From: Enterobacteria phage mEp237
Direction: 5' to 3' (one strand)
DNA: 44,375 nucleotides
Sequence record: NC_019704.1
Shown here: positions 5,905-44,375 of the stretch, in pieces
How positions within the stretch are numbered: position 1 is the stretch's first letter
Layout: every line of letters starts with the position of its first letter
Notes under the pieces: model-generated
Seen by the model: only the letters and a program-made list of their open reading frames with translations
Told to the model about the DNA's origin: nothing
The model's database searches: none
Translations under genes and position numbers: made by a program

Positions 5905-5933
5905 TCCGCATTTCTACAACCATCATCATTCAT

Positions 5934-5958: not shown

Positions 5959-5971
5959 ACGGGAAAAATCT

Positions 5972-6997
5972 ATGTCCGTTTACACCACTGCCCAACTGCT
6001 GGCGGTCAATGAGAAGAAATTCAAATTCGATCCGCTTTTCCTGCGTATCTTTTTCCGCGAAACCTATCCCTTCAGTACAGAGAAGGTTTACCTGTCGCAA
6101 ATTCCTGGCCTGGTCAATATGGCGCTTTACGTCTCGCCGATTGTCTCCGGCAAAGTGATCCGCTCCCGTGGCGGCAGCACGTCTGAATTCACGCCGGGTT
6201 ATGTGAAGCCGAAACACGAAGTTAACCCACTGATGACTCTCCGCCGCCTGCCGGATGAGGATCCGCAGAATCTCGCTGACCCGGTCTATCGCCGTCGCCG
6301 CATTATCCTTCAGAACATGAAGGATGAAGAGCTGGCGATTGCTCAGGTCGAAGAGAAACAGGCTGTTTCGGCGGTGCTCAGCGGTAAATACACCATGACC
6401 GGGGAAGCGTTCGAGCCTGTTGAAGTCGATATGGGCCGCAGCGCTGGTAACAACATTGTCCAGGCCGGTGCGGCTGCATGGTCAACCCGCGACAAAGAAA
6501 CGTATGACCCGACCGATGACATTGAAGCCTACGCGCTCAACGCCAGCGGTGTGGTCAACATCATTGTGTTCGATCCGAAAGGCTGGGCGCTGTTCCGTTC
6601 CTTCAAGGCTGTTGAGAAGAAGCTGGATACGCGTCGTGGTTCTAACTCTGAGCTGGAAACTGCCGTGAAAGACCTGGGTATGGCTGTTTCATACAAGGGG
6701 ATGTTTGGCGATGTGGCCATCGTGGTGTACTCCGGCCAGTACGTCGAAAACGACGTCAAAAAGAATTATCTGCCGGACCTGACAATGGTGCTGGGGAATA
6801 CCCAGGCTCGTGGCCTGCGTACCTATGGCTGCATTCTTGATGCTGATGCCCAGCGCGAAGGTATCAATGCCTCGACACGCTACCCGAAAAACTGGGTGCA
6901 GTCGGGGGATCCGGCGCGCGAATTCACCATGATTCAGTCAGCTCCGCTGATGCTGCTGCCAGACCCTGACGCATTCGTCTCCGTCAAACTGGCATAA
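5972..6997 (+). CDS. E: Major capsid protein (lambda gpE homolog)
   Basis: 341 aa, same length as lambda E, with very high similarity (MSVYTTAQLLAVNEKKFKFDPLFLR...). Confidence 0.96.
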   Translation: MSVYTTAQLLAVNEKKFKFDPLFLRIFFRETYPFSTEKVYLSQIPGLVNMALYVSPIVSGKVIRSRGGSTSEFTPGYVKPKHEVNPLMTLRRLPDEDPQNLADPVYRRRRIILQNMKDEELAIAQVEEKQAVSAVLSGKYTMTGEAFEPVEVDMGRSAGNNIVQAGAAAWSTRDKETYDPTDDIEAYALNASGVVNIIVFDPKGWALFRSFKAVEKKLDTRRGSNSELETAVKDLGMAVSYKGMFGDVAIVVYSGQYVENDVKKNYLPDLTMVLGNTQARGLRTYGCILDADAQREGINASTRYPKNWVQSGDPAREFTMIQSAPLMLLPDPDAFVSVKLA

Positions 6998-7042
6998 CTT
7001 CCCCCAGTGGCCCTGTCGGGCCACCTTTCTGGAGTATTTCCC

Positions 7043-7450
7043 ATGACAGAAAAAGAAAAGCTGGTCGCCCGCCTGAATGAACTTGGGACCCAGCTTAACC
7101 GCGAGGTCAGTACCAGCGGCACCATTCAGGAACTGACGATGCGTATTGCTGAGCTTGAAGAGGAACTGGATGGCAATGCCGGGTCAGTTGACGGTGAAAA
7201 CGGCGTGCAGAATGCTTCCGACAGCACCGACAGCACCGACAACAATGTTGCTAACGTGGCAAAAGTAAAAACGGAATCGGCCACAACGGGTGACCTGGTA
7301 TCAGTAGAAACGCTGGCCACCCTGCATATTGACGCTCTGCATGCCACGCGTAACGAGCCGGTATCTATCGTAGAGCCTGGTGTGATTATCCGCGTATCTG
7401 AACAGGATGCCGACGACTTGATCGCAAAGGGGCTGGCTTTCGAAGTCTGA
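7043..7450 (+). CDS. FI: DNA packaging protein FI homolog
   Basis: Start at internal ATG (MTEKEKLVARLNELG...) preceded by GGAG; acidic middle region and C-terminus LHIDALHATR resemble lambda FI; the ORF-track start at 7007 lacks an RBS. Confidence 0.8.
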   Translation: MTEKEKLVARLNELGTQLNREVSTSGTIQELTMRIAELEEELDGNAGSVDGENGVQNASDSTDSTDNNVANVAKVKTESATTGDLVSVETLATLHIDALHATRNEPVSIVEPGVIIRVSEQDADDLIAKGLAFEV

Positions 7451-7460
7451 AGGGGGCCAC

Positions 7461-7814
7461 ATGGCTGATTTCGATAATCTCTTTGACGAGGCCATGTCGC
7501 GAGCTGATAGCGCTATCCGTGGTGTGATGGGCACAGAGGCAAAGGTGATGTCAGGCGCTTTGTCAGGTGCCACCCTGGTCGGTGTATTCGATGATCCAGA
7601 AAATATCGGATATGCCGGTGCCGGGATTCGTGTTGAAGGAACCAGCCCGACCCTGTTTGTGGAAACCGCCACTGTCAGGCAGCTGCAGCGTATGGACACG
7701 CTGACGATTAACGGTCGGCAATTCTGGGTTGAACGTATTGGTCCGGATGACTGTGGCTCCTGTCATATCTGTCTGGGTAACGGCTCTCCACCTGCATCTT
7801 CGCGTCGCCGTTAA
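7461..7814 (+). CDS. FII: Head-tail connector protein FII homolog
   Basis: 117 aa, same length as lambda FII; N-terminus MADFDNLFD and conserved GVFDDPENI. Confidence 0.9.
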   Translation: MADFDNLFDEAMSRADSAIRGVMGTEAKVMSGALSGATLVGVFDDPENIGYAGAGIRVEGTSPTLFVETATVRQLQRMDTLTINGRQFWVERIGPDDCGSCHICLGNGSPPASSRRR

Positions 7815-7823
7815 GGAGCGCAT

Positions 7824-8378
7824 ATGTCCATAAAAGGCCTTGAACAGGCCATAGAAAACCTTAACAGCATCAGCAAAACGGCTGTTCCGCGGGCATCGGC
7901 GCAGGCCGTTAACCGCGTGGCAAACCGGGCCGTCAGCCGCAGCGTGGCAGTCGTATCAAAAGATACGCGCGTACCGCGAAAACTGGTAAAGCAACGCGCC
8001 AGGGTGAAGCGTGCGACGGTCAATAGACCTCGTGCACTTATCCGGGTAAACCGGGGAAATTTACCGGCCATTAAACTCGGTACCGCAAGCGTGCGACTTT
8101 CCCGCAGAAAACGGGACAAGAAAGGGGCCAACAGCGTTCTGCGCATAGGGCCATTTCGTTTTCCGGGCGGCTTTATCCAGCAACTTAAAAATGGTCGCTG
8201 GCATGTCATGAGGCGGACTTCAAAACCTCGTTACCCCATTGAAGTGGTCAGCATCCCGCTGGCAGCTCCATTAACTACGGCATTTAAAGAAGAACTGCCG
8301 AAGCTCATGGAGTCAGATATGCCCAAAGAGCTCCGGGCATCCCTTACCAACCAACTCAGGTTAATTCTGACACGATGA
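7824..8378 (+). CDS. Z: Tail completion protein (lambda gpZ homolog)
   Basis: 184 aa; similarity to lambda Z (IKGLEQA...NGRWHVM); position after FII. Confidence 0.88.
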   Translation: MSIKGLEQAIENLNSISKTAVPRASAQAVNRVANRAVSRSVAVVSKDTRVPRKLVKQRARVKRATVNRPRALIRVNRGNLPAIKLGTASVRLSRRKRDKKGANSVLRIGPFRFPGGFIQQLKNGRWHVMRRTSKPRYPIEVVSIPLAAPLTTAFKEELPKLMESDMPKELRASLTNQLRLILTR

Positions 8379-8773
8379 AACACAGCGATATTCGCAAGGT
8401 GATTATTGACGCGCTGGAAAGCGCGATTGGTACTGATGTCATTTATTTTGACGGCAGACCTGCAGTGCTCGAAGAGGGTGATTTTCCCGCTGTTGCCGTC
8501 TACCTGACAGATGCGGAATACACAGGGGAAGAACTGGACGCCGATAGCTGGCAGGCCATTCTGCATATCGAAGTCTTTCTTGAGGCTCAGGTACCTGATT
8601 CTGATCTGGATGACTGGATGGAGACGAGAGTGTATCCGGTTCTCGCAGAGGTTCCGGGGCTTGAATCTCTTATCACCACAATGGTTCAGCAGGGCTATGA
8701 CTACCAGCGCGATGACGATATGGCGCTGTGGAGTTCTGCCGACCTGAAATATTCCATTACTTACGACATGTGA
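8375..8773 (+). CDS. U: Tail terminator protein (lambda gpU homolog)
   Basis: 132 aa; strong similarity to lambda U (FDGRPAV...[18 protein letters not shown]); ATGA overlap with Z. Confidence 0.9.
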
Positions 8774-8780
8774 GGACCCT

Positions 8781-9518
8781 ATGGCCACACCAAACCCGCT
8801 GGCACCAACAAAAGGTGCTGGTACCACCCTCTGGGTTTACACCGGAACTGGTGATCCATACGCCAATCCGCTTTCAGACGTTGACTGGCTGCGCCTGGCA
8901 AAGATTAAAGACCTGCAGCCCGGAGAACTGACAGCTGAATCGGAAGATGACACCTACATCGATGATGAGAATGCCGACTGGACATCAACGATGCAGGGGC
9001 AGAAATCAGCCGGTGAAACAAACCTGACGCTCGCATGGATGCCGGAGGATTCCGGTCAGCAGGACCTGGTGAACTGGTTCGATGAAGGCACCGTGAAGGG
9101 GTATAAAATCAAATATCCGAATGGTGTTGTCGATGTCTTTAAGGGCTGGGTGAGCAGTCTCGGCAAGACCATCTCGTCTAAAGAGGTCATGACCCGCACG
9201 GCAAAAATCACCAACAATGGCAAACCATCGCTGGCCGAAGACAGTGGTACCGCGCCGATTGCCGTTACGGGGATCAGCCTGGATAAATCCACGGCGGCTG
9301 TGGCTGTCGCGGCCACGACGCAACTGGTTGTTTCTGTCCTGCCAGCAAGTGCTTCAGATAAGTCTTTCCGCGTAGCCAGTTCTGATCCGTCAAAAGCAAC
9401 GGTCACCGTCAGCGGCAATACCCTGACTGTTACCGGCGTGGCGGCAGGCACCGTCGAGATCATCGTAATGAGCAATGACGGTAACTTTGTGGCGATCTGC
9501 AAAGTCACTGTTTCCTGA
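8781..9518 (+). CDS. V: Major tail tube protein (lambda gpV homolog) with C-terminal Ig-like domain
   Basis: 245 aa; lambda V-like N-terminus; C-terminal Big_2-like segment ([21 protein letters not shown]). Confidence 0.92.
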
Positions 9519-9554
9519 TAACCGGGGCGAAAGCCCCGTTCCCCCGGAGTAATT

Positions 9555-9977
9555 ATGTTTCTAAAGAGCGAGCTGCTTGAAAGTAACGGCAGCAGCGTCA
9601 CATTGTTCCAGCTGTCGGCGCTGCAGCGTATTGAATACCTCGAATACCTGAAACAACTTGAGGCGGTTGAAGCTGGTGATTTTCAGGCTGCCATTACCCT
9701 TACCGTGAAGAGTGGAGCATATCTGGTGGCAATGTCACTCTGGCATGGCCACGCGCTTAAAGGATCGCAGGGAGAAAACGCGGCGGCGGAAGTGGAGCAG
9801 ATTCAGGATGAGGTCATGCAGACATGGCCGACCGAACTTGTTGCCGAAGCCGAATATAAGGTGAAACTCCTGTCCGGGATGATTGCGCCGGTCACTGATG
9901 ACCAGGCTGAGCCCGGTGAAGAACGTAATGAACCCGCTGAACCTGTTACTGCGGAAAAGCCCTCGCCAGTGAGCTGA
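9555..9977 (+). CDS. G: Tail assembly chaperone (lambda gpG homolog)
   Basis: 140 aa, same length as lambda G, with similar N-terminus and core (MSLWH); followed by an overlapping -1 frame ORF. Confidence 0.9.
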   Translation: MFLKSELLESNGSSVTLFQLSALQRIEYLEYLKQLEAVEAGDFQAAITLTVKSGAYLVAMSLWHGHALKGSQGENAAAEVEQIQDEVMQTWPTELVAEAEYKVKLLSGMIAPVTDDQAEPGEERNEPAEPVTAEKPSPVS

Positions 9978-10306
9978 AGTTTGCCATGAAACTGGCGCGT
10001 GAGTTCGGTCGCCCGGACTGGCGTGCCATGCTTGCTGGCATGTCCTCAACGGAATACGGCGACTGGAAAATCTTCTACCAGGACAATTACTTTCATGATG
10101 CGCAGCTGGATGCTCATTTCTCCGGTTTGCTCTACACCATCTCAACCCTGTTTTTTGCTGATCCGGAATTAACACCGGACAGTTTCAGCATCCTTTCCCC
10201 TGTATCGGAAAGCATCGACGTTGATGAGCCGGATGACGATACGCTGATGGCGAAGGCTGCAGGTATTTCAGGAGGCGTGCGCTATGGCCCAGACGGCAGT
10301 GGGTGA
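9941..10306 (+). CDS. T: T segment of the G-T tail assembly chaperone fusion (reached by -1 frameshift from G)
   Basis: The -1 frame is open from 9941 (stop at 9938-9940) to 10306 and overlaps the G 3' end, matching the lambda G/G-T arrangement; exact slip site uncertain. Confidence 0.7.
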   Translation, partial: TCYCGKALASELKFAMKLAREFGRPDWRAMLAGMSSTEYGDWKIFYQDNYFHDAQLDAHFSGLLYTISTLFFADPELTPDSFSILSPVSESIDVDEPDDDTLMAKAAGISGGVRYGPDGSG

Positions 10307-12800
10307 TCTGGTCGTTAACCTTGACGTTAACTCGACGAAATTTAACGAGCAGCTTAACTACGTCAAAAAAGAATTAAAGCAGACTGGCAGCGCGGCGAAC
10401 GACGAAGCGCTACGGATCCAGCAGTCCTTTAGCCGCCAGGAGAACGCCGCGCGCAAGGCGGGTATTTCAATAGGCCAGTATAACGCAGCAATGCGTATGC
10501 TTCCGGCGCAGTTTACCGATATAGCTACGCAGCTAGCGGGCGGGCAGAACCCATGGCTGATTCTGCTTCAGCAGGGCGGTCAGGTTAAGGACTCCTTTGG
10601 CGGGATAATACCAACATTCCGGGCCTTACTGGGTACGATCTCACCGTTGATGGTCGGCATCGGTGCGCTGTCCGCCGCAACGGGTGCGCTGTTCTATGCC
10701 TGGTACCAGGGCTCATCCACACTATCTGACTTCAACAAAACGCTGGTACTGTCGGGGAACACGGCCGGATTGACTGCCGATCGTATGTTGGCGCTGGCAC
10801 GAAACGGCCAGGCAGCGGGGCTGACGTTCAATCAGACCAGCGAAGCCCTGAGCGAGCTTATCAACGCGGGGGTGGGCGCGAGTTCGCGCTTTGATGAAAT
10901 GAGCCAGGCGGTGGCGCGATTTACTGATGCCTCCGGCGTGCCGGTGGAAAAAGTCGCAGCCGCATACGGCAAGCTCACTACTGACCCTACATCAGGCCTG
11001 ATCGCGATGGCTCAGCAGTTCCACAACGTTACGGCCGAACAGATTGCCCATGTGGCACAGCTGCAGCGTGCCGGTGATGAGGCTGGCGCACTGCAGGCGG
11101 CTAATCAGGCTGCTACTGCCGGATTCAACGATCAGACCAAGGCCATCCGCGACAATATGGGGACGATTGAGTCTTCAGCGGATTCCCTGAAGCGTGCCTT
11201 CAAGTCGATGTGGGATGCTGCACTTGATATTGGCAGACCTGACACCGCCCAGGAGATGGTGGCAAAAGCCCAGGCCGCGTTTAAAAAGGCTGATGAAATC
11301 TGGAACCTGCGTAAAGGTGACCGATATGTCAATGATGAGGCTCGCGCCCGATTCTGGAATGACCGCGAAACGGCCAGGCTTGCGCTGGATATGGCGCAGC
11401 AGCAGGCGGGAATTGCCAGGGCGAACGAAGAGAATGCATCGCGCGAAGCGGCTGCGGAATCGGATCGCCAGAAGTATGCTGCGCAGGCACAGGCAAACTA
11501 TGCCAAAACGCAGACGGCACTGGAGAAATACACGGCCAGGCAGAGCGAGCTCAACAAGGCGCTGAAAGAGGGGCGGATCCTCCAGGCTGACTACAACATC
11601 AACCTGGCTGCCGCGAAAAAAGAGTACGAAGACACCCTTAAAAAGCCGAAGAAGACCCCGGCAATCAGAACCCCCGCAGGTGCCCGTGCCACCGATACGG
11701 CCAGTGCCCAGACGCTGGAGCTACAGACACAGCTGCGCACCCTGCAGGAGCATAAGAGCATCAATGACACCATCAGCCAGCAGCGTCAGGAGCTGTGGCG
11801 TCAGCAGTCCCGCTTTACGGTTCTGGAAGAGGCCGCGAAGACCCGAACGCTTTCTGCTGAGGAAAAATCCCTGCTGGCCAGTAAAAGTGAGGTGCTTTCC
11901 CGTGCGGAGCTGAATGCGAAGCTCGGCGATCAGATAGTGGCGCAGGAGCGGCTTAATCGCCTGCAGGATACGTCCCAAAAATACGTCACGCAGATCGGCG
12001 AGAAAACCCGAGCCCTTGCGGAAAGTGCTGGTATGAGCAGTCGTGCAGCACAACGTCGCAATGAAGAGGCCCAGCTTCTTCAGGGCTGGAAAAATGGTGG
12101 TGGTTCGGAGAACGATGCTGGTTATCAGAATGAGCTGCAGGCGCTGCAGGCGTATTACGCCGAGCAGGATAAGCTGCGGGACGACTGGCAGTCCGGAGCC
12201 AAATCCGCATGGGCAGATTATGTTGATTCTGCTTCAGATGCTTATGGCCAGATGAAGTCGGCTGCCACCAGTGCGTTTGATGGCATCGGGCAAAATATGG
12301 CTGACATGCTGACGCGCGGAAAGGCTGACTGGGCTGACTTCACCCGCTCCACGCTCTCCATGCTGACACAGATCCTGCTGAAACAGGCGATGGTAGGCCT
12401 GGTGGATTCAGCGACAACCGCGCTGGGATTTGCAGGTGGCGGTTATACCGGTTCAGGCGGGAAATATGAACCTGCAGGTGTCGTTCACCGTGGTGAATTT
12501 GTTTTCACCAAAGAGGCTACCAGCCGGATCGGCGTCGGCAATCTTTACCGGATGATGAAAGGGTATGCCACGGGTGGGTATGTCGGGGGCGGTGGTACAG
12601 GCCCGGCTGCAGCACCTTTCGGTGTCAGTGTATATGCCCCGGTGACGGTCGAGAATGCTTCCGGTAACGCACAGCAGCAAAACGACGGAGACAGGCTGGG
12701 TAAGGCGTATCAGCAGGTGATTAACAAATCTGTCAACGATGGTATCGCCAGGGCAATCCAGCCCGGTGGGCTTATCTGGAATGCGACCAATCGCAGGTAA
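10284..12800 (+). CDS. H: Tail tape measure protein (lambda gpH homolog)
   Basis: 838 aa; extensive similarity to remembered lambda H (KAGISIGQYNAAMRMLPAQFTD..., C-terminal GVVHRGEFVFTKEATSRIGVGNLYRMMKGYATGGYVG). Confidence 0.94.
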   Translation: MAQTAVGDLVVNLDVNSTKFNEQLNYVKKELKQTGSAANDEALRIQQSFSRQENAARKAGISIGQYNAAMRMLPAQFTDIATQLAGGQNPWLILLQQGGQVKDSFGGIIPTFRALLGTISPLMVGIGALSAATGALFYAWYQGSSTLSDFNKTLVLSGNTAGLTADRMLALARNGQAAGLTFNQTSEALSELINAGVGASSRFDEMSQAVARFTDASGVPVEKVAAAYGKLTTDPTSGLIAMAQQFHNVTAEQIAHVAQLQRAGDEAGALQAANQAATAGFNDQTKAIRDNMGTIESSADSLKRAFKSMWDAALDIGRPDTAQEMVAKAQAAFKKADEIWNLRKGDRYVNDEARARFWNDRETARLALDMAQQQAGIARANEENASREAAAESDRQKYAAQAQANYAKTQTALEKYTARQSELNKALKEGRILQADYNINLAAAKKEYEDTLKKPKKTPAIRTPAGARATDTASAQTLELQTQLRTLQEHKSINDTISQQRQELWRQQSRFTVLEEAAKTRTLSAEEKSLLASKSEVLSRAELNAKLGDQIVAQERLNRLQDTSQKYVTQIGEKTRALAESAGMSSRAAQRRNEEAQLLQGWKNGGGSENDAGYQNELQALQAYYAEQDKLRDDWQSGAKSAWADYVDSASDAYGQMKSAATSAFDGIGQNMADMLTRGKADWADFTRSTLSMLTQILLKQAMVGLVDSATTALGFAGGGYTGSGGKYEPAGVVHRGEFVFTKEATSRIGVGNLYRMMKGYATGGYVGGGGTGPAAAPFGVSVYAPVTVENASGNAQQQNDGDRLGKAYQQVINKSVNDGIARAIQPGGLIWNATNRR

Positions 12801-12805
12801 CAGTT

Positions 12806-13153
12806 ATGACGATAGAAACATTCCCCTGGGGTATTAAGGTCTCCAGCCAGCCCACAGAGGGAAGCAAAGACACCGTCAGGAAGGTCCAGTTCGGCGACGG
12901 TTACGCACAGGTGAGCGGCTCAGGTCTGAATGATGAAATTCGCACCTATGAATTTTCCTTCTCAGGGGATCCGACTACAGCGAATGAAATTCATGCCTTC
13001 CTTCGGCGGCATAAAGTGAAGTCGTTTATTTTCACTCCGCCTTTCGGCGATACCGCGCTGTGGCGTGTCGAGGCTGACACGCTCAAAAAGGTGGTTAAAA
13101 ACGTAAAAGTGATAACCGTAACCGCAACGTTTGAACAGGCATTTGCACCATGA
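12806..13153 (+). CDS. M: Minor tail protein (lambda gpM homolog)
   Basis: 115 aa; conserved VRKVQFGDGY motif and position after H. Confidence 0.88.
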   Translation: MTIETFPWGIKVSSQPTEGSKDTVRKVQFGDGYAQVSGSGLNDEIRTYEFSFSGDPTTANEIHAFLRRHKVKSFIFTPPFGDTALWRVEADTLKKVVKNVKVITVTATFEQAFAP

Positions 13154-13905
13154 GTCTTAATGCTGATTATCAAAAACTTGAGCCGGGCAATGAAGTCCGG
13201 CTTTTTTCTGTCGATGGTACAGCGTTCGGTATGTCAGATGTGCTCCGCTTCCACGCACACAATATCGCACACACCCCGGAAGAGATTGAAGCCGCAGGCG
13301 GGGATGAGAATAAACTTCCGGCGAAGTCCATATGGTGGCAGGGGGAGGAATATAAAGCCTGGCCATGTCAGGTGGAGGGTATTGAGGCGACCACAGACGG
13401 TACCAGCCCACAGCCAAAATTGACGGTGGCGAACCTGGACAGCTCGATCTCAGCGCTCTGTCTGGCGTATGACGATCTGCTGCAGGCGAAAGTGAGTATC
13501 CACGACACGCTGGCACAGTATCTGGACGCCAGAAATTTTCCGCAGGGCAATCCCACTGCAGACCCGTCACAGGAAAAGCTGAAGGTCTTTTATATCGATG
13601 CCAGAAGCACCGAGACGGATGAATCTGTTGAATTTACGCTTTCCAGTCCGATGGATTTACAGGGCCAGATGATACCCACGCGGCAGCTGCATTCGTTATG
13701 CAGCTGGTGCATCCGGAACAAGTACCGGACCGGCGACGGCTGCGACTATGCCGGAACGCGCTATTTCGACAAAAACAATAATCCGGTTGACGATCCATCG
13801 CTGGATGTCTGCAACGGCACGCTGACGGCCTGCAAGCTCCGGCACGGAGACAGCAACGAGCTGCCGTTTGGCGGTTTCCCCGGTACATCTCTTATCAGGA
13901 GCTGA
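13150..13905 (+). CDS. L: Minor tail protein (lambda gpL homolog) with C-terminal Cys cluster
   Basis: 251 aa; C-terminal cysteines (CSWC...C...C...C) as in the lambda gpL Fe-S region; ATGA overlap with M. Confidence 0.9.
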   Translation: MSLNADYQKLEPGNEVRLFSVDGTAFGMSDVLRFHAHNIAHTPEEIEAAGGDENKLPAKSIWWQGEEYKAWPCQVEGIEATTDGTSPQPKLTVANLDSSISALCLAYDDLLQAKVSIHDTLAQYLDARNFPQGNPTADPSQEKLKVFYIDARSTETDESVEFTLSSPMDLQGQMIPTRQLHSLCSWCIRNKYRTGDGCDYAGTRYFDKNNNPVDDPSLDVCNGTLTACKLRHGDSNELPFGGFPGTSLIRS

Positions 13906-13906
13906 T

Positions 13907-14638
13907 ATGCGCCAGAAAACCATTGATGCCATCATGGCACACGCTGCAGCGGAATATCCGCGAGAGTGCTGCGGCGTGGTGGCACAGAAAAGCCGGGTTG
14001 AGCGCTATTTTCCCTGTCGTAATCTCGCAGCAGAGCCGACTGAACATTTTCACCTGTCCCCCGAAGATTACGCAGCGGCAGAAGACTGGGGGACGGTGGT
14101 GGCCATTGTTCACAGCCATCCTGATGCGACGACGCAGGCCAGCGAGCTGGATAAGGCGCAGTGTGATGCAACGCTGCTGCCCTGGCATATTGTGAGCTGG
14201 CCAGAGGGGGATTTACGTACCATTCAGCCACGCGGGGAGCTGCCATTGCTGGAGCGTCCGTTCGTGCTTGGCCACTTCGATTGCTGGGGTCTGGTAATGA
14301 GCTATTTCCGGCAGACCCACTGTATCGAGCTCCACGATTACCGGGTGGATTATCCCTGGTGGGAAAACGACTACCCGGACAATTTCTATCAGGAGTGCTG
14401 GTACGAGTGCGGATTCAGGGAGTTTGATGGTCCGCCTCAGGAAGGGGACCTCGTCATCATGCAGGTGCAGGCCGATAAGTGGAATCATGCCGGGATTTTA
14501 CTGGAGGGTAACATGCTGCTGCACCATCTTTACGGGCATCTGAGTCAACGTGTTCCTTATGGCGGATACTGGCAGGAGCGCACAATGAAGATCGTTCGCT
14601 ATAAAGATGTAATGGCAGGTGAAACATGCAGGAAGTAA
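13907..14638 (+). CDS. K: Tail assembly protein (lambda gpK homolog; JAMM/MPN plus NlpC/P60 domains)
   Basis: Start MRQKTIDAIMAHA with AGGAG upstream; JAMM motif HSHP...S..D and C-terminal region match lambda K; the ORF-track start at 13868 overlaps L and lacks an RBS. Confidence 0.9.
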   Translation: MRQKTIDAIMAHAAAEYPRECCGVVAQKSRVERYFPCRNLAAEPTEHFHLSPEDYAAAEDWGTVVAIVHSHPDATTQASELDKAQCDATLLPWHIVSWPEGDLRTIQPRGELPLLERPFVLGHFDCWGLVMSYFRQTHCIELHDYRVDYPWWENDYPDNFYQECWYECGFREFDGPPQEGDLVIMQVQADKWNHAGILLEGNMLLHHLYGHLSQRVPYGGYWQERTMKIVRYKDVMAGETCRK

Positions 14639-15216
14639 TGACCCGCATTGAGCTTGGCGGCGTGCTCGGGAAAACATTCGGTAAAGTTCACCATCGCCTG
14701 ATTTCCCGCGTGAACGAAGCGAGTGTTGCGCTGGCAAAGACTATACCGGGCTTTGAGCAGTTTATGATTTCCAGCCAACGCCGTGGTCTCACTTATTCAG
14801 TATTCAAAGGGAAAAAGAATATTGGTGTTGATGACCTGGGTTACCCGGTCACCGGCGATGTCATTCGCATTGTCCCGGTGATTATCGGGAGCAAAAAGGC
14901 CGGATTACTCCAGACAATACTTGGTGCAGTTCTGGTTGCCGTTGGGGCGGTGCTTAATTTCACACCCTGGGCTGCGGCATCACCATTCTTATACAAATTC
15001 GGTGCCGCAATGATGATTGGCGGGGTTGTTCAGATGCTTTCCCCTCAACCAGCGGGGCTGGCCAGCAAACAGAGTTCAGATAACCGCGCCTCATACGCGT
15101 TCGGTGGAGTCACCAACACCGCCGCGCAGGGCTATCCGGTACCGCTTCTTTATGGTCGTCGGCAAATCGGCGGTGCGATTATTTCTGCCGGGATTTATGT
15201 CGAAGACCAGCAATAA
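14626..15216 (+). CDS. I: Tail assembly protein (lambda gpI homolog)
   Basis: 196 aa; hydrophobic central segment; gene order K-I-J. Confidence 0.85.
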   Translation: MQEVMTRIELGGVLGKTFGKVHHRLISRVNEASVALAKTIPGFEQFMISSQRRGLTYSVFKGKKNIGVDDLGYPVTGDVIRIVPVIIGSKKAGLLQTILGAVLVAVGAVLNFTPWAAASPFLYKFGAAMMIGGVVQMLSPQPAGLASKQSSDNRASYAFGGVTNTAAQGYPVPLLYGRRQIGGAIISAGIYVEDQQ

Positions 15217-15232
15217 ATAAAAACCTCCTTTC

Positions 15233-15257
15233 AGGCCACCTCAGGGTGGCCTTTTTT
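15233..15257 (+). terminator. Intrinsic terminator-like hairpin between I and J
   Basis: 8-bp stem AGGCCACC / GGTGGCCT, loop TCAG, then TTTTT. Confidence 0.6.
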
Positions 15258-15268
15258 ATGGGCGCAAT

Positions 15269-18200
15269 ATGGCTACATCTACTCCGATTAGAGGCCGCAA
15301 GGGCGGCAGCTCCAGTTCACGCACCCCGACTGAACAACCAGACGATCTCCAGTCCGTAGCGAAAGCCAAAATTCTTGTTGCACTGGGAGAGGGCGAATTT
15401 GCAGGGCAGTTGACGGCGAAGGATATCTATCTCGATGGCACGCCACTGGAGAATGCAGACGGATCGCAAAACTTCAGTGGCGTGGCGTGGGAATTTCGTC
15501 CGGGGACTCAGGCACAAAAATATATTCAGGGTATCCCCGGCACAGAAAATGAAATCAGCGTGGGCACCGAAGTGTCAAGCACCACCGGCTGGACACATAC
15601 CTTTACCAACACGCAACTGTCAGCCGTTCGCCTGCGCCTCAAGTGGCCATCGCTTTTTAAACAGGAGGATGATGGCGATCTGGTTGGCTATTCAATTAAC
15701 TACGCTATTGATCTGCAGACCGATGGCGGCACCTGGCAGACGGTACTTAATACCAGCGTAACCGGCAAGACAACTTCCGGCTACGAACGCAGCCATCGTA
15801 TCGATTTACCACAGGCAGGCAGTACATGGACGGTGCGCCTGCGTAAGCTTACGGCGGATGCCAACAGCGCGAAAATTGGCGACACGATGACGCTGCAGAG
15901 CTACACAGAGGTTATTGACGCCAAACTGCGTTATCCAAATACCGCGCTGCTGTACATCGAATTCGACTCAAGCCAGTTTAACGGCTCTATCCCGCAAATA
16001 TCCTGCGAACCGCGAGGGCGTGTAATCCGCGTTCCGGATACGTATGACCCGGAGACCCGCACCTACAGCGGCACATGGACAGGGGCGTTTAAGTGGGCGT
16101 GGACGGATAATCCAGCCTGGATTTTTTACGATCTGGTGGTGAGCGACCGCTTTGGGCTGGGCAATCGCCTGACGGCGGCCAATATTGATAAATGGACGCT
16201 TTATCAGGTCGCGCAATATTGCGATCAGCCGGTTCCTGATGGTAAAGGCGGTAGCGGCACTGAGCCTCGCTATACCTGTAACGTGTACGTGCAGGAGAGG
16301 AATGACGCCTATACCGTGTTACGTGATTTTGCGGCGATATTCCGGGGCATGACGTACTGGGGTGGCGATCAAATCGTTGCGCTGGCGGATATGCCCCGCG
16401 ATGTGGATTACAGCTACACGCGTGCAAACGTGGTTAATGGGCGCTTTACCTATTCGGGCAGCACCACCAAAACCCGCTATACCACGGCACTGGTTTCCTG
16501 GTCCGATCCGGGTAATGCCTACGCGGATGCGATGGAGCCTGTATTTGAGCAGGATCTCGTTGCTCGCTTTGGCACAAATCAGCTCGAAATGACAGCCATT
16601 GGTTGTACCCGGCAGTCAGAGGCAAACCGCAAAGGACGTTGGGGTATCCTGACCAATAACAAGGATCGCATCGTGTCGTTCGATGTTGGTCTTGACGGTA
16701 AGATCCCACAGCCTGGTTATATCATCGCGGTTGCCGATGAGCTGCTTTCCGGAAAAGTGATGGGAGGGCGCATCAGCGCGGTTAACGGTCGCGTTATCAC
16801 GCTTGATCGTGATTCGGCAGCCGCTCCCGGAAGCCGTCTGATGGTTAACCTTCCGTCCGGCGCATCGCAGAGCAGGACGATACAGAGCGTAAACGGGCGG
16901 GCCGTCACTGTGACAACGGCATACAGCGAAACACCTGCAGTGGAATCGGTGTGGATTGTCGAGTCTGAAGAGCTTTACGCGCAGCAATATCGCGTTATCA
17001 GCGTTACGGATAATAATGACGGAACGTATTCGATTGCTGGCGCTTTGCACGATCCGGATAAATATGCGCGTATCGATACCGGTGCCATTATCGACCAGCG
17101 GCCAATAAGTGTAATTCCGCCCGGTAATCAGTCCCCGCCAGCTAATATCGCGATCAGTTCGTTTTCTGTCGTTCAGCAGAATATCAGCGTTGAGACCATG
17201 CGCGTCAGCTGGGACCAGGCGAAAAATGCTATCGCGTATGAGGCACAGTGGCGTCGCAATGACGGGAACTGGGTGAATGTGCCGCGCAGCTCCACCACGT
17301 CATTCGATGTTCCGGGGATTTATGCAGGACGCTACCTGGTTCGCGTGCGTGCCATCAATGCCGCCGAAATTTCATCTGGGTGGGGCTATTCAGAAGAGAA
17401 AACGTTGACGGGTAAAGTGGGAAACCCACCGAAGCCGGTTGGCTTCATCGCTTCTGAAAACGTGGTATTCGGTATCGAGCTGAACTGGGGATTCCCGGCG
17501 AATACCGAAGACACGCTGAAGACGGAAATTCAGTACAGCCTGACCGGTAGCGAAGATGATGCAATGCTGCTGGCCGATGTGCCTTATCCGCAGCGCAAAT
17601 ATCAGCAGATGGGTCTTAAGGCAGGGCAGATTTTCTGGTATCGCGCGCAACTGGTCGACAGAACGGGAAACGAGTCCGGGTATACCGACTGGGTGCGAGG
17701 TCAGGCCAGCATCGATGTTTCCGATATCACCGATGTGATCCTGGAGGAGATCAAAGACTCCGCTACGTTTAAAGATCTGATTGAGAGCGCAGTGGACAGC
17801 AATGAAAAAATTGCTGGCATGGCTGACGAAATCAAAAACCATGCAGACGAGCTGGAGCAGCAGGCGAAAGATATACAGGAAAACGCTGACGGGCTGGCGC
17901 AGGCGGCGGTAAAAATCGATGAGATTTCCGTTTCAATGGACGGTATGACAGGAGGCGTGAAGAATTCGGCAATTGCGATAATCCAGAATGGGCTGGCGCA
18001 GGTTGTCAGTCGTCGTTCCCAGACAGCAACAAACGCCGGGAACAGTGCCAGTATAGACAGAGTGGATACTACGATTGCCGATACCAGCCAGGCGGTCGCA
18101 CGCGCGCTGGTCACACTGGATGCAGAAGCTGGTGGCAATATCTCTAACTCAACGGACCTGACAGAAACTCTTGCTGATTTCACCCAGGCTTCGGCAACAA

Positions 18201-20091: not shown

Positions 20092-20107
20092 ATTGCCTGG
20101 AGAAAAT

Positions 20108-21511
20108 ATGCTTTATAACACCGGCACCATCGCCATTAATGGAAATACCGCCACCGGGACGGGTACAAACTGGACGGCACCGGCCAGCCAGGTCCGCGCT
20201 GGCCAGACGATTATCGTGATGTCTAACCCGGTGCAGCTGTTTCAGATTTCATCCGTGAACAGCGCCACGTCTTTGACGGTTACGCCAGTTGCTTCCCCGG
20301 CGCTGAGCGGCCAGAAGTATGGAATCCTTGTGTCAGACAATATCTCAGTCGACGGCCTGGCGCAGGCCATGTCTCAGCTCATCAAAGAGTATGACGAGAA
20401 TATCGGCGCATGGGAGACGTTCGCCACAACCTCAGCCAACCAGAACATTACCGTTACGATCAATGGCACCAGTTTATCAATCCCGGCTCTTGGGAAATTA
20501 CTGCAGAAGGGGGGCAACGGAGCTTTGCCGGTTAATCAAGGTGGTACCGGCGCAACGAATGCCGCAGACGCTCGCACAAACCTCGGTTTAGGCACATTCG
20601 TTACCCAGGAAGATCAGAGCATCGTCTATGGCCCGTCGCTGGATCATGCGCTTGTCGTACGAAAAGACGAATGGGGCGTCGTTGTTTCGGATAATGGTAA
20701 TCCGGTACCACTCGGAACCCGTTATGGCGGAACGGGGGCAAAAACACCTTTTGATGCAGCAACAAATCTGCAAACCATTAGATCCCTGACATATAGATTT
20801 GGCCCAGGAATGGACCCTACGTCAATATCATTTAAAAACACATCAGCATTTATAGTAGGACAGCAGGGCTATGGTCCTATCGGCGCTTTTCTGGATATCA
20901 CATCTTTCGATAATTCTGCAAGGATGCAGCTCTACGGGTGCTATGACTCACAAATGTTCCCGGGTAAAAATGCACTTGCCTACGCAACGTATAACCCAAA
21001 CGACCGTACCTGGTACCCAATTGCATTTGTAAGGGACACATCGAATACAACTGTCGATTCGAACGGTTTCATTAAATCAGCATCTCCAATAGTCAACGTT
21101 TATGGTGATGGGCGATACGAAACTAACGATGAATCAGAAGGGGTAAGAGTCACACGTCTGGATGTGGGGCAATACTACATTGAGGGATGTCAGGCGCTCA
21201 ATTCTGACGCTGCATGGGGCGGTATTGACGGAGGTTTTGAGATTCCCACTGACAGGAATAAGCAACCGCTGATATGGCTGGATTACGAGGTTAACGCCGA
21301 CGGCTCTGTGCTGGTAAAAACCTATCACCGCGAGCATCCTTCAGCGCCAGCATTTGCCAGGAATGAGCGCGCTGGATTGGCAGATGGCGAGCCGGTTGAC
21401 ATCCCGGCTGATCAGTTCGTCAGCGTTCGTGTAGAAATGCCAGCGAGTAGCATCTGGAATCAGAAACAGAAACAAACGGAAGAGGCTTTAAAGCAGGAAC
21501 AGGGGTCTTAA
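20108..21511 (+). CDS. Putative side tail fibre protein
   Basis: ATG at 20108 with GGAG 5 nt upstream (track start 20093 is a TTG); Gly/Thr/Asn-rich N-terminal region typical of tail fibres; sits after J. Confidence 0.7.
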   Translation: MLYNTGTIAINGNTATGTGTNWTAPASQVRAGQTIIVMSNPVQLFQISSVNSATSLTVTPVASPALSGQKYGILVSDNISVDGLAQAMSQLIKEYDENIGAWETFATTSANQNITVTINGTSLSIPALGKLLQKGGNGALPVNQGGTGATNAADARTNLGLGTFVTQEDQSIVYGPSLDHALVVRKDEWGVVVSDNGNPVPLGTRYGGTGAKTPFDAATNLQTIRSLTYRFGPGMDPTSISFKNTSAFIVGQQGYGPIGAFLDITSFDNSARMQLYGCYDSQMFPGKNALAYATYNPNDRTWYPIAFVRDTSNTTVDSNGFIKSASPIVNVYGDGRYETNDESEGVRVTRLDVGQYYIEGCQALNSDAAWGGIDGGFEIPTDRNKQPLIWLDYEVNADGSVLVKTYHREHPSAPAFARNERAGLADGEPVDIPADQFVSVRVEMPASSIWNQKQKQTEEALKQEQGS

Positions 21512-22654: not shown

Positions 22655-23203
22655 ATGATTTACGGTTATGCCCGAGTATCAACAAACCACCAGGACACTG
22701 AATTGCAACTAACGGCGCTCAAGTCAGCTGGTTGTGAGAAAATTTTTGAAGAGCATGCCAGCGGGAGGAAATCGAATCGGCCGGTTCTAAAACGGCTGAT
22801 CGCCACTATGCAGCCGGGGGATGAACTGGTGGTCTGGAAGCTGGACAGGATAGGCCGCAACGTTCTGCATGCGCTGTTGATGTTCCAGCAGTTACAGGAA
22901 AAGGGTATCAACTTCCGCAGTATTACCGATGGCGTGGATCTCAAAACAGCCAGCGGCCGCTATAACTTTCGTAACATCCTTTCCGCAGCACAATATGAAT
23001 CTGATCTTAATAGCGAACGTACCTTAGCAGGGCTGGCCGTAGCCAGGGCAAAAGGGCGAGTTGGTGGTCGCAGGCCTAAGTTCACGGATGAGCAATGGCG
23101 GGAAATGGGGGAGCGGATGGCAACCGGTGAATCACGACAAAGCGTATCAAAAACGTATGGAGTAGGGCTCTCAACTCTGTATAAAAAGTTTCCAGCTAGC
23201 TGA
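22655..23203 (+). CDS. Serine recombinase, DNA invertase (Hin/Gin/Pin family)
   Basis: 182 aa; N-terminal YARVSTNHQ catalytic Ser motif, VVWKLDRIGRN, C-terminal HTH (GLSTLYKK); GGAG RBS. Confidence 0.92.
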   Translation: MIYGYARVSTNHQDTELQLTALKSAGCEKIFEEHASGRKSNRPVLKRLIATMQPGDELVVWKLDRIGRNVLHALLMFQQLQEKGINFRSITDGVDLKTASGRYNFRNILSAAQYESDLNSERTLAGLAVARAKGRVGGRRPKFTDEQWREMGERMATGESRQSVSKTYGVGLSTLYKKFPAS

Positions 23204-23478
23204 TAACGGGAAAGAAACAGAGAAGGGCACAAATATTGTGTACTTTAATGTGCCCTTTAATTTATTGATTGGTGGTTGAATTGTCCGTAACTTTTTGATT
23301 TAAGTGCAAATTTCTAATAAATTAGAACACTTTCTTAAATTGTCATTTGGCATATTACGAACAATTCCGCGTAAAAACGTTCTGTTACGCTAAACCCTTA
23401 TCCAGTAGGCTTTCAAGGATGTAAACCATAACACTCTGCGAACTAGTGTTACATTGCGTGTAGCTTTGAGTGGGCAAC

Positions 23479-23519
23479 TTTGTGTACACTTTTGTGTACC
23501 CAAAAACAAAAATGTGTAC
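23479..23519. repeat. Three direct repeats of TTTGTGTAC / ATGTGTAC just upstream of int (candidate integrase arm sites)
   Basis: TGTGTAC at 23481-23487, 23494-23500 and 23513-23519; a fourth copy at 23237-23243. Confidence 0.5.
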
Positions 23520-23526
23520 CCATTCA

Positions 23527-24720
23527 ATGATCACCGACACAAAGCTCAGGAAGGCGCTCGGCAAGAAAAGAGATGATATCGAGATTATTTCTGATTCGCA
23601 CGGGCTCAACGCCAGAATCAGCCAGGCCGGAAAAATATCATTTTTCTATCGGTATCGCTGGGCCGGTAAAGCGGTAAAACTCAATGTTGGTGATTATCCT
23701 GCAATGAGTATCACCCAGGCAAGAGAGCGTCGCCAACAATTCAGAAACTGGTTAACTGAGGGACTGGATCCGCGAGAGCAGGTGAAGCTGGATAAGCAGA
23801 CCCGACAGGAAGCGATGTCCGTTGCCGAAGCGTTCAATTACTGGATTGAAAGGCACTGTATCGCTAACGGGCTAGTTAAAGTCGATTACTATCGCCAGGT
23901 GTTTGAGAAACATATCGCCGAACCGATGAAGAATGTCAAAGTCGATAACACAGCGAAAATGCACTGGATCAACGTCTTCGATTCTATAGAAAGCAGGGTG
24001 ATGGCTCATTACATGCTTTCGCTGTGCAAACGGGCGTTTAGGTTCTGCGTTAACAGAAGTGTGATCGCCTCAAACCCACTCGAGGGATTACTGCCATCTG
24101 ATGTCGGGCAAAAGCCTAAAAAGAGAACTCGCAGGATGGACGATGACGATCTGCGCAAAATCTATCAGTGGTTGAAAAGCCATATGTCGATAGAGTCCGT
24201 TTTCCTGGTGAAATTTATTATGCTTACCGGATGCCGTACGGCTGAGATTCGACTTAGTGAGAGATCATGGTTTCGATTGGATGATAATGAGTGGGTCGTG
24301 CCTGCGGGCAGTTATAAAACTCGGGTACATATTAGAAGGGGACTCTCAGACGCCGCCGTTAACCTGGTCAGAAATCACCTCAAGAAAATAAACACCAATC
24401 ACCTGGTGACTTCACAACGTAAAATTGATGGCGGGATCAAAGATTCGCCCGTTCATTCACCTGTGGCATCCAATTACGCCCGTTCTATTTGGAATGGAAC
24501 AGGTATGGCAGAGTGGTCGCTTCATGATATGAGGCGGACGATAGCCACAAATCTCTCTGAGTTAGGTTGCCCGCCGCACGTAATTGAAAAGCTGCTCGGG
24601 CATCAGATGGTGGGGGTTATGGCGCATTACAACCTTCATGACTATATCGATGATCAGAAACACTGGCTCCGCGTTTGGCAGAGCCATCTTGAAGAGATCA
24701 TCGGAGAGCCCTTCAGTTAA
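23527..24720 (+). CDS. int: Tyrosine integrase (P4-like phage integrase family)
   Basis: Start MITDTKLRK typical of P4-like integrases; C-terminal catalytic region (HDMRRT..., LLGHQ...HYNLHDY); track start 23470 and ATG 23512 are alternatives. Confidence 0.92.
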
Positions 24721-32153: not shown

Positions 32154-32546
32154 TTACTCAGAATCACCCTTAATCCGCCGCCCCATATACTTGGCGTACA
32201 GTTCATCGAGTTCCTTCAGGCGCAGTGATACCGCCTTAAGAACTCCACTCTGATCCTCTTCGGGGAGTTGACGGAAAAAACGTAAAAGCTCTTGCTCATT
32301 ACTTTTTAATCCATCATTGGGCCCTATATCCTGCCCCAAAACCCAGGCTAAATTCACACCAAGCGCATCAGCTAGCTTAAGTGCGGAGTTTTTTCCAATA
32401 GTTCCCCTTACAAACCAGTTGTTAACCGACTGGGATGTTACGCCACAAATTCTGGCCAGATCTGCTTTTGAGAGATGTTTACTATTCGTGATCTCATTGA
32501 GTCGTCTGACCTGTGGGTTATCTGATTCGTGTGTATTTTTTCTCAT
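32154..32546 (-). CDS. DicA/RacR-like HTH repressor paralog (no peptidase domain)
   Basis: N-terminal XRE HTH (LSKADLARICGVTSQSVNNWF) and C-terminal LPEEDQ...LRLKELDELYAKYM segment shared with the adjacent paralog; start taken at internal ATG. Confidence 0.75.
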   Translation of the reverse strand: MRKNTHESDNPQVRRLNEITNSKHLSKADLARICGVTSQSVNNWFVRGTIGKNSALKLADALGVNLAWVLGQDIGPNDGLKSNEQELLRFFRQLPEEDQSGVLKAVSLRLKELDELYAKYMGRRIKGDSE

Positions 32547-32565
32547 GTACAAGAGTATCACTTAG

Positions 32566-32949
32566 CTAATCAGCATCGCCCCTGATTCTGCGATTCATGT
32601 ACTTGGCATATAGTTCATCGAGTTCCTTCAGACGCAGGGAGAAGATCCTTATCATATTCTGCTGTTCTTCTTCCGGTAACTGTCTGTAGAGCTCCAGAAT
32701 ACGTTGTTCATCAGGCTTAAGGCCATCCTTCTCTCCAACATCCTCACCAAGTAGCCAGGGGACGGATACCCCAGCAGCATCAGCAACCGCTAATGCAGAA
32801 CTTTTGCTGATTCTTCCTGTTTTGAACCAACTGGAAACAGCTTGCTTACTGACGCCAGCAACCCTGGCCATCTCTGTTTTAGAGAAACCTTTCCGGTTCA
32901 GTTCTGTAAGCCTGGAGATCAGCCCAGTAGTCATTGTGTTTTCGCTCAT
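32566..32949 (-). CDS. DicA/RacR-like phage repressor (CI analog without S24 peptidase domain)
   Basis: HTH (FSKTEMARVAGVSKQAVSSWF) plus C-terminal LPEEEQ...LRLKELDELYAKYM domain; divergent from the cro-like gene; start could be 32934, 32949 or 33033. Confidence 0.8.
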   Translation of the reverse strand: MSENTMTTGLISRLTELNRKGFSKTEMARVAGVSKQAVSSWFKTGRISKSSALAVADAAGVSVPWLLGEDVGEKDGLKPDEQRILELYRQLPEEEQQNMIRIFSLRLKELDELYAKYMNRRIRGDAD

Positions 32950-32958
32950 TTCACTAGT

Positions 32959-33024
32959 GTAAATGATTGCTTTACCAGTAGGTAGGCATTCATTGATTGA
33001 CTCATTGGTAAAATGATGCTTTAC
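32959..33024. promoter_or_regulatory. Divergent immunity promoter/operator region with two dyad-symmetric operator-like sites
   Basis: GTAAATGATTGCTTTAC (32959-32975) and GTAAAATGATGCTTTAC (33008-33024), each GTAAA-N-TTTAC, 49 bp apart; candidate -35 TTGACT at 32997-33002. Confidence 0.55.
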
Positions 33025-33046
33025 TTTTTCCATCTAAGGAGGTCCT

Positions 33047-33271
33047 ATGACTGGTATTGAGAAAGCTATTCAAAAGTTTGGCACAGGTGCGGCACTCGGA
33101 AGAGCGCTTGGATTTTCAAAAATGACAATTTCCAACTGGAAGAAAACTGGCATTCCGCCCGATCACATTCGCTCTGTTTTTGAGCTTACGGGAGTCACCC
33201 CGCATGAGTTGCGGCCTGACTTATATCCCAATCCAACCGATGCCTTACCAGTGCAAGAAACGAGGGCATAA
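33047..33271 (+). CDS. Cro-like / YdaS-family HTH regulator
   Basis: 74 aa; divergent from the repressor; YdaS/Cro-like pattern (GTGAALGRALGFSKMTISNWKKTG...ELRPDLYP); AGGAGG RBS. Confidence 0.8.
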   Translation: MTGIEKAIQKFGTGAALGRALGFSKMTISNWKKTGIPPDHIRSVFELTGVTPHELRPDLYPNPTDALPVQETRA

Positions 33272-33273
33272 CC

Positions 33274-33813
33274 ATGCAGTCACTGTCACTTCATCAAAAT
33301 AGCGGATATCAACCGGCTGCGATGATAAATCGCAATCAACCTGTCTCGGTAGATAAACATGACCAGATCCGCGATGCCGTTCGTGCGTGGGCGGGTGTAG
33401 ATGGTCAGGATGTCGTTTCTGCTCTGATCATCGAAGAGTACCAGGCTCAAGGGGGAGACGAGATCACTTTCCCTGATGACCTCAGCCGACAGCGTCAGAA
33501 GCTTTTCCGCTTTCTGGATAACCATTTCAACAGCGAACGGTACCGCGAAAACGTTCGCCAGCTGACTCCGGCAATCCTCGCTGTCCTGCCGATTGAATAC
33601 CGCAATCGTCTGCTACCAGAAGACAACGTAATGGCTCGTCTGGCAAGGCTGGAGAAGGAAACCAGCGAAGCGAAGATTGCTGTCGCAATGGATGCGCCAC
33701 GTCATCAGAAGCTGAAAGAGTTGAGCGAGGGGATCGTGGAGATGTATCGCGTTGACCCTGGGTTAACCGGTCCGTTGATGGAAATGGTGCAGATTATGCT
33801 GGGGGCTATATGA
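33274..33813 (+). CDS. CII-like / YdaT-like early regulator
   Basis: 179 aa at the cII position between cro-like and O; family assignment from memory only. Confidence 0.5.
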   Translation: MQSLSLHQNSGYQPAAMINRNQPVSVDKHDQIRDAVRAWAGVDGQDVVSALIIEEYQAQGGDEITFPDDLSRQRQKLFRFLDNHFNSERYRENVRQLTPAILAVLPIEYRNRLLPEDNVMARLARLEKETSEAKIAVAMDAPRHQKLKELSEGIVEMYRVDPGLTGPLMEMVQIMLGAI

Positions 33814-43482: not shown

Positions 43483-43506
43483 GCCTCGCTTATGCGGGGC
43501 TTTTTT
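43483..43506 (+). terminator. Intrinsic terminator
   Basis: Stem GCCTCGC / GCGGGGC (one G-U pair), loop TTAT, then a 6-T run. Confidence 0.65.
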
Positions 43507-43619
43507 ATGCGCATCGCACGCGCACACCGTAGAAAGTCTTTCAGTTGTGAGCCTGGGCAAACCGTTAACTTTCGGCGGCTTTGCTGTGCGACAGGCTCAC
43601 GTCTAAAAGGAAATAAATC

Positions 43620-44087
43620 ATGGGTCATAAAATTATCACGTTGTCCGGCGCGGCGACGGATGTTCTGTATGCGCTGTTTTTCCGTGGCGCGCTTCAGTCT
43701 GGTGATCTGCCAGCCAAATCTGGTGCTGCTGAGCTTCTAGAGCTGGGATTCGCTGAAACACGCCATACCGCGACGGAGTATCAAAAGGAAAATTATTACA
43801 CCTTCCTGACCGCTGAAGGGCAGGAGTTCGCCATTAAGCACCTGGTGAATACGCGCTTTGGTGTTCCTGCTGGTGGTTATATTGGTGGCTCTGTAAATAT
43901 TCAGTTTGGCCGGATAGAGAACGACCCACGAAAAGGCTATGCCATCAATGTTGGCATCTGTCCCGAAATTAAGACCGGCGTGAAGCTATCCCCTGAAATG
44001 GTAAAAGCGATCTCAGATGTTGTGTCCGAGGAACTGAAGAAGAGTCTTCGGCCAGGTGGCACGATATGGTCAGCGCTGTCGCGATGA
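43620..44087 (+). CDS. Hypothetical protein
   Basis: 155-aa ORF, last gene before cos; family not recognised. Confidence 0.55.
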   Translation: MGHKIITLSGAATDVLYALFFRGALQSGDLPAKSGAAELLELGFAETRHTATEYQKENYYTFLTAEGQEFAIKHLVNTRFGVPAGGYIGGSVNIQFGRIENDPRKGYAINVGICPEIKTGVKLSPEMVKAISDVVSEELKKSLRPGGTIWSALSR

Positions 44088-44188
44088 ATGGACGTTTAGA
44101 CGTCCAAATGGGTGCGAATCAAGTCGCATTCCAGCAAATGATAATCATTATCATTTGCGGGTCCTTTCCGGCGATCCGCCTTGTTACG

Positions 44189-44375
44189 GGGCGGCGTCCG
44201 CGCAGATTCTCGCTATTTATGAAAATTTTCTGGTTTATGCCATTTCCGTTCTTCTTCTTGTTTACTCATTGTTTTTGTTAAAAACGTCCTCTCTCCAGAA
44301 AGGAAATGCTGAGCAAGGAAAACGGAAGTTTACCGTTGATTGTTTCCTTTCTCTGTTTTTTGCCAGGAGTAAGCC
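44189..44375. other. cos: Cohesive end site: cosN-like sequence (44189-44200) plus cosB-like terminase-binding region
   Basis: GGGCGGCGTCCG followed by CGCAGATTCTCGCTATTTATGAAAATTTTCTGGTTTATGCCATTTCCGTTCTTCTTC... closely matches the remembered lambda left end; about 176 bp upstream of the Nu1 ATG when the window is circularised. Confidence 0.8.

Follow-up and report, generated by a model that had tools for sequence, protein, structure and literature searches.

A probable lambda-family cos site with an N15-type cohesive end in a lambdoid phage genome record opened at the Nu1 start codon

Several parts of the lambda-family cos site have been described in enough detail to serve as landmarks. The 7-bp cosQ is highly conserved and is required for nicking of the downstream cos, while I2, between cosN and cosB, is needed for efficient termination (PMC4669245). 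In lambda, the R3 site of cosB spans bp 50-65, and the terminase small subunit (TerS) contacts bp 55-63, as determined by NMR (PMC9026076). The cohesive end itself is more permissive. Those of N15 and phiD326 have bp 9 and 12 as their only departures from that of lambda (Feiss et al. 2015, PMC4669245), changes at bp 7-12, natural or induced, are phenotypically tolerated, and there is no cosN specificity among terminases; an engineered lambda of the composition cosQ(lambda) N(N15) B(lambda) produced 132 pfu per cell versus 120 for the wild type, a normal yield (PMC4669245). N15 stands apart in other respects: it is a linear plasmid prophage without int or attP, and the DNA-binding end of its TerS and its packaging specificity are distinct (PMC4669245).

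The DNA considered here, referred to as the window, is a stretch of 44,375 nt; bp numbers and relative positions (rel.) are counted from base 1 of the cohesive end, and all other positions are those of the window. We put the probability at about 0.9 that window 44159-44356 functions as the cos site of a temperate lambdoid phage with HK225, phi80, and N15 among its relatives, and that the window is the whole genome of that phage, written as a circular map whose opening point, the Nu1 start codon, lies 187 nt rightwards of the true left end.

The cos site and terminase genes

A complete lambda-family cos site lies within the last ~220 bases of the window. Its 12-mer, GGGCGGCGTCCG, stands on the plus strand at 44189-44200 and is the sole exact copy in the window, with 175 nt between its end and the window end (187 nt counted from cohesive-end base 1). 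A search of the window for this 12-mer with up to 2 mismatches returned 5 matches versus 4.2 expected; since such a count is at chance level, the bare 12-mer is weak evidence, and we relied instead on the extended alignment, by which the match is far beyond chance. For this alignment, the window end was joined to the window start, and the junction was aligned with the cos regions of lambda, phi80, N15, and HK225. Counted without gaps from base 1, 66/80 and 75/92 nt are identical to lambda, whereas the best placement of lambda 1-92 elsewhere in the window, on either strand, reaches 43/92. To the left of the predicted top-strand nick, 26 of 30 nt are those of lambda. With gaps allowed, identity over 44129-44375 (247 nt) is 73.7% to lambda, 78.3% to phi80, and 93.9% to HK225.

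The first-pass annotation had placed a lambda-type cos site 175 bp before the window end, and this assignment is borne out: the 12-mer is accompanied by cosQ, cosN, I2, and the R3, R2, and R1 sites of cosB, upstream of Nu1 and gpA homologues (Table 1). The check that it proposed, an alignment of the window end plus start with the lambda cos, recovered every defined cos subsite in lambda's register. Two of its details need amendment. It had the 12-mer and the following ~80 bp closely matching lambda, which holds for the 80 nt counted from base 1 but not for the 12-mer, which is not the GGGCGGCGACCT of lambda. It also had the distance to Nu1 as the same as in lambda, which is nearly but not exactly so: from base 1 of the cohesive end to the Nu1 ATG there are 187 nt in the window, 190 nt in lambda, 189 nt in phi80, and 187 nt in HK225.

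Table 1. Positions of the cos subsites, terminase genes, attP core, and palindrome in the window
Feature	Position	Strand	Description
Palindrome, near perfect	44131-44161	.	15-nt arms, 93% complementary; directly left of cosQ and overlapping it
cosQ, GGGTCCT	44159-44165	+	Packaging-termination signal; 30 nt from its first base to the predicted top-strand nick, the same offset as in lambda (48473-48479)
cosN nicking site	44187-44202	.	GGGCGGCGTCCG (44189-44200) plus CG on either side; same as the annotated N15 sticky end and as HK225
I2, CGCAGATTCTCGCTATTTATGAAAATTTTCTGG...	44201-44237	+	Between cosN and cosB; 43/50 nt from base 1 identical to lambda
cosB R3	44238-44256	+	CCATTTCCGTTCTTCTT, rel. 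50-68; critical binding site of the terminase small subunit
I1, presumed IHF bending site	44257-44292	.	A/T-rich, between R3 and R2; assigned by consensus match
cosB R2	44293-44309	-	GCATTTCCTTTCTGGAG, read on the minus strand; orientation opposite to that of R3 and R1; rel. 105-121, as in lambda and phi80
cosB R1	44340-44356	+	TTGTTTCCTTTCTCTGT; rel. 152-168 (lambda, 154-170; phi80, 153-169)
Nu1 homologue, terminase small subunit	1-546	+	181 aa; PF07471, E 1.6e-95; base 1 is the A of the ATG
gpA homologue, terminase large subunit	521-2443	+	PF05876 and PF20454; ATPase and endonuclease domains
attP core	23326-23342	+	AACACTTTCTTAAATTG; phi80-type, intact; located via the mEpX1 annotation

Within cosN, the cohesive end is G+C-rich; its bp 1-8 are those of lambda, GGGCGG(CG) being the conserved left half, and each nick position is flanked by CG. 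The two-fold symmetry of cosN is 10/16, equal to that of lambda. Nicks are predicted at 44188/44189 on the top strand and 44200/44201 on the bottom strand, which would leave 5' overhangs of 12 nt. In 60 non-redundant sites from IMG/VR, the columns from cosQ through I2 are 70-99% conserved, with the same range at columns +13 to +42, and the window agrees with the consensus.

In cosB, bp 55-63 of R3 (TTTCCGTTC) match lambda exactly, and R3 is unlike lambda at bp 50, 52, and 54. The R motif, [AG]TTTCCNTTCT, has three copies in the whole window, all of them in cosB: one on the plus strand at rel. 52-68, and one each at the R2 and R1 sites. The same motif occurs at 52-68 in both lambda and phi80, as well as at the R2 and R1 positions listed for these phages in Table 1. 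The spacer between R2 and R1 has diverged from that of lambda, and R1 is displaced by 2 nt. On the minus strand of I1, at rel. 74-86, AAACAATGAGTAA is a weak match, with 2 mismatches, to the IHF consensus WATCAANNNNTTR, at the position occupied by the match in lambda; the likeness is suggestive of an IHF site.

The genes for Nu1 and gpA are intact and lie immediately to the right of cosB. The Nu1 homologue is 87% identical to that of lambda, 94% to that of phi80, and 55% to gp1 of N15, with an N-terminal DNA-binding part unlike that of N15. By analogy, it is predicted to bind the R sites through an N-terminal winged helix-turn-helix, and gpA is the predicted enzyme that would nick cosN. At the nucleotide level, similarity to N15 (90.9%) starts only at window position 306, inside Nu1 at about codon 102, and this places a module boundary within the small terminase gene: the C-terminal part of Nu1 and all of the head and tail genes are N15-like, while the DNA-binding end of Nu1 and cosB are lambda/phi80-like.

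Gene order and genome ends

The Pfam map of the window reads, from the left, Nu1, A, portal, protease, D, E, the tail genes through J, and the tail fibre; then the Pin-like invertase, attP, int, RecT, RecE, a CI-like repressor, O, P, and Q; and, at the lysis end, holin, lysozyme, an ORF in the spanin position, and a 155-aa ORF, followed by cos. This gene order is the full canonical lambdoid map, and the gene set is complete. We built a junction query of 1400 nt from the last 700 nt and the first 700 nt of the window. It matched a prophage in the chromosome of E. coli MB06022 at 100%, in one unbroken match, and was matched at 99.9% in strain 97.3; the contig KM389287 likewise crosses the junction between window end and window start without a break. 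The contiguity of this junction, together with the full lambdoid map, upholds the proposal of the first-pass annotation that the window is a full phage genome rotated to start at Nu1.

The intact attP core lies between the gene for the Pin-like invertase (22655-23203) and int (23470-24720). Among the best listed E. coli matches, 24 of 25 end at window 23340-23343, adjoining yciI. A local BLAST against the MB06022 prophage placed kch beside attL (23321...), then int and, further on, 43495-44375 joined directly to 1-14605; after a further stretch, Pin, attR (...23340), and yciI came last. The prophage order is thus a cyclic permutation of the window. Since attP is intact in the window and split in the lysogens, beside yciI and kch, the window is not in prophage order. 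The first-pass annotation had the sequence in virion or circular order and not that of an integrated prophage; circular order stands, and prophage order is set aside, while virion order does not apply, as it would begin at 44189. The virion chromosome is predicted to run from 44189 to 44375 and then from 1 to 44188, plus the 12-nt overhang, giving 44,375 bp, or 91.5% of the length of lambda.

We weighed whether the window might represent a single repeat of a tandem (poly)lysogen, or of a replicative concatemer, taken from a chromosome or metagenome assembly. If cut from Nu1 to Nu1, a tandem dilysogen would likewise yield an intact attP, with cos inside the piece, so that by sequence alone it would be the same as the circular map, and E. 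coli chromosomes do contain prophages whose cos junction is 100% identical. However, the window opens exactly at the Nu1 ATG and ends one base before it, and an exact one-genome length at that phase would be an odd coincidence for a chance slice. Nor did any of the E. coli complete genomes with matches to the attP region (n = 264) have one place covering at least 80% of the query across attP. The opening point is also found in other records: that of HK225 opens at the same Nu1 ATG and ends 187 nt after its cos, and that of mEp213 opens at its own terS start codon. Since these records do likewise, the choice of the terminase start codon as the opening point is a convention of deposition, and we regard a slice from a tandem array as very unlikely.

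We also looked for a full-length relative in phage records and in E. coli complete genomes, and none spans the whole window. In the best phage record, HK225, coverage is 86% for the left half and 48% for the right half (22000-44375), and in the best E. coli prophages no more than 68% of the right arm is covered. This is a mosaic phage, whose completeness is read from the gene map and the junction and not from an identical reference.

Records of a near-identical phage, Phi06_2987 S, bear on the physical end. Marked UNVERIFIED and unannotated, they hold two contigs, one on each side of cos, with 99.7% and 100% identity to the window; one contig ends at the initial G of the 12-mer, and the second begins at its seventh base. 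A physical terminus would tend to leave contigs broken within the cohesive end, and we infer that the break inside the 12-mer reflects such a terminus. This weighs against the idea that the cos-like sequence is an inactive relic in a phage that packages by a headful (pac) mechanism or is defective. The departure of the cohesive end from lambda at 2/12 positions would be in keeping with decay; yet the same 12-mer is the real sticky end of N15, and changes at bp 9 and 12 are tolerated experimentally (PMC4669245). Moreover, all of the defined subsites are kept at the correct spacing beside intact Nu1 and gpA genes, and a genome of 44.4 kb fits a head of lambda size. A relic site therefore seems to us extremely improbable.

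Hardly any weight can be given to the window being a linear plasmid prophage like N15, or else a satellite with a cos (PICI), and not an integrating lambdoid phage. In favour of this, its 12-mer is that of N15 and its structural genes (306-17692) are 90.9% identical to those of N15; against it, the window has a phi80-type attP with a tyrosine integrase, a complex lambda-type cosB, a Nu1 N terminus unlike that of N15, N15 similarity that ends after the tail genes, and, against a satellite, full sets of head, tail, replication, and lysis genes; on the grounds of attP/int, the tripartite cosB, and the full gene set, both were rejected.

Two other regions of the window were observed in passing. 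The Pin-like serine invertase (Resolvase and HTH_7 domains) is encoded between the tail-fibre gene (20093-21511), which ends shortly upstream, and attP, which follows directly; given this arrangement, the tail-fibre (host-range) segment may be invertible, like those of Mu, P1, and e14. In the immunity region (32154-33813), two CI-like HTH genes lie side by side on the minus strand (32566-33033 and 32154-32561), facing a YdaS/YdaT-type pair. The neighbours of the repressor in bacterial contigs are called YdaS_toxin and YdaT_toxin, and the exact 155-aa repressor was found in 442 blocks of a public-assembly collection, nearly all of them bacterial contigs.

Cohesive-end variant, packaging, and the palindrome left of cosQ

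Compared with the GGGCGGCGACCT of lambda, the cohesive end of the window carries T for A at bp 9 and G for T at bp 12, and it is identical to the annotated sticky end of N15. The cos of the window, in which this end is combined with lambda-type flanking elements, is a natural counterpart of the engineered cosQ(lambda) N(N15) B(lambda) construct. Because cosB and the recognition end of Nu1 are of the lambda/phi80 type, a packaging specificity of that type is predicted from the sequence. For a sample of related sites, we searched IMG/VR for sequences matching cosQ-N21-CGGGGCGGCG and obtained 118 distinct sites among the matches listed. Of these listed sites, 108 carry the 12-mer of lambda and 4 carry that of the window, 2 of the 4 with a lambda-type tripartite cosB. 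With 4 of the 118 sampled sites, versus 108 for lambda's, the 12-mer of the window is a minority yet established variant. Four viral contigs in IMG/VR have two cosQ-cosN matches each, in opposite orientation and ~520-770 nt apart; these pairs may be assembly artefacts at cos ends or inverted duplications of cos.

By the lambda paradigm, packaging at this site would proceed as follows. Dimers of the Nu1 DNA-binding domain would bind R3 and R2, brought together by IHF bending at I1, with R1 in an accessory role. Anchored in this way, the endonuclease of gpA would introduce nicks 12 bp apart, at 44188/44189 (top) and 44200/44201 (bottom), and strand separation would leave 5'-GGGCGGCGTCCG overhangs. 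The end held by terminase at cosB would then dock on the portal of the prohead and be threaded in, with translocation running rightwards through Nu1, A, ... J, attP, int, ... Q, S, R, and Rz. When the next cosQ-cosN-I2 is reached, the downstream cos would be nicked and packaging would stop. The nick positions, IHF binding, and packaging specificity in this scheme are inferred from sequence likeness to lambda.

The palindrome directly to the left of cosQ marks the left edge of the conserved cos region, and homologous sequences are present in lambda, phi80, HK225, and mEp213. Its core, GCAAATGATAATCATTATC (44134-44152), was scored against the 19-bp Fur-box consensus. The core agrees with it at 17/19 positions and is the only site in the window with a score of at least 16/19; at the homologous place, lambda scores 16/19, and sampled IMG/VR cos sites score up to 18/19. 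In the 60 non-redundant IMG/VR cos sites, aligned without gaps, the palindrome is ~30-55% conserved per column, versus 70-99% for cosQ through I2, so it is not a universal cos element. The papers searched for a Fur box at cosQ, or for a description of the HK225 cos, contained nothing relevant. It is conceivable, though improbable, that the palindrome is a real site for Fur (or another dimeric regulator) that would make late read-through transcription, or the ending of packaging at cos, responsive to iron status. Within the same narrow range of probability, and as the smaller possibility, an N15/phiD326-type end combined with a lambda-type cosB might partly isolate the lineage from lambda/phi80-type phages, through mismatched ends after co-packaging.

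For annotation, the value of these results is that the true genome ends would be placed at 44188/44189, that the record would be read as a complete genome and not as a prophage fragment, and that a lambda-type packaging specificity is predicted alongside a sticky end of the N15/phiD326 type. Biological questions are neither opened nor settled by the cos finding.

Comparison with known systems

Lambda shares with the window its subsites and their order, orientation, and register, together with identical cosQ and R3 bp 55-63 and the same CG flanks; its int/att module differs, that of the window being of the phi80 type. In phi80 (JX871397, in which the sticky ends and "cosQ; aka R4 region" are annotated), the stretch from cosQ to cosN is identical to that of the window except at bp 9 and 12, as phi80, unlike the window, carries lambda's 12-mer, GGGCGGCGACCT. 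The two phages share the tripartite cosB, the attP core, and the integration site, and their Nu1 proteins are 94% identical.

N15 (NC_001901) has the identical cohesive end, GGGCGGCGTCCG, conserves cosQ and I2, and has head and tail genes ~91% identical to those of the window; phiD326, as cited in PMC4669245, has the same cohesive-end variant as the window. The cosB of N15 is simple, with a single R3 and a terS start at bp 89, whereas that of the window is tripartite and Nu1 starts at bp 188. The marks of an N15-type simple cos (a single R3, terS at about bp 89, and an N15-type TerS end) are thus absent from the window.

Two further phages, mEp213 and mEp043, share 95% identity with the window between 43900 and bp 8 of the cohesive end (44196). 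Beyond bp 8, they have their own right half of cosN (GGGCGGCGCGCT), their own cosB, and their own terS.

The closest counterpart is HK225 (JQ086371, in which cos is not annotated), with the same 12-mer, cosQ, and R3/R2/R1 layout and the same 187 nt to Nu1. Over the 247 nt at which it is 93.9% identical, its cos differs from that of the window by 15 substitutions, mostly to the left of cosQ and in the R2-R1 spacer. HK225 is unrelated to the window to the left of ~44088 and 94% identical rightwards. There are thus mosaic joints at cos, with mEp213 and mEp043 sharing the left side up to bp 8 and HK225 sharing the right side. Lambda-family cos sites, the cosN variant of N15 and phiD326, and its tolerance are already in the literature, and HK225 has the same combination; the window adds a further case in nature where the right half of cosN assorts independently of the cosB/terS module.
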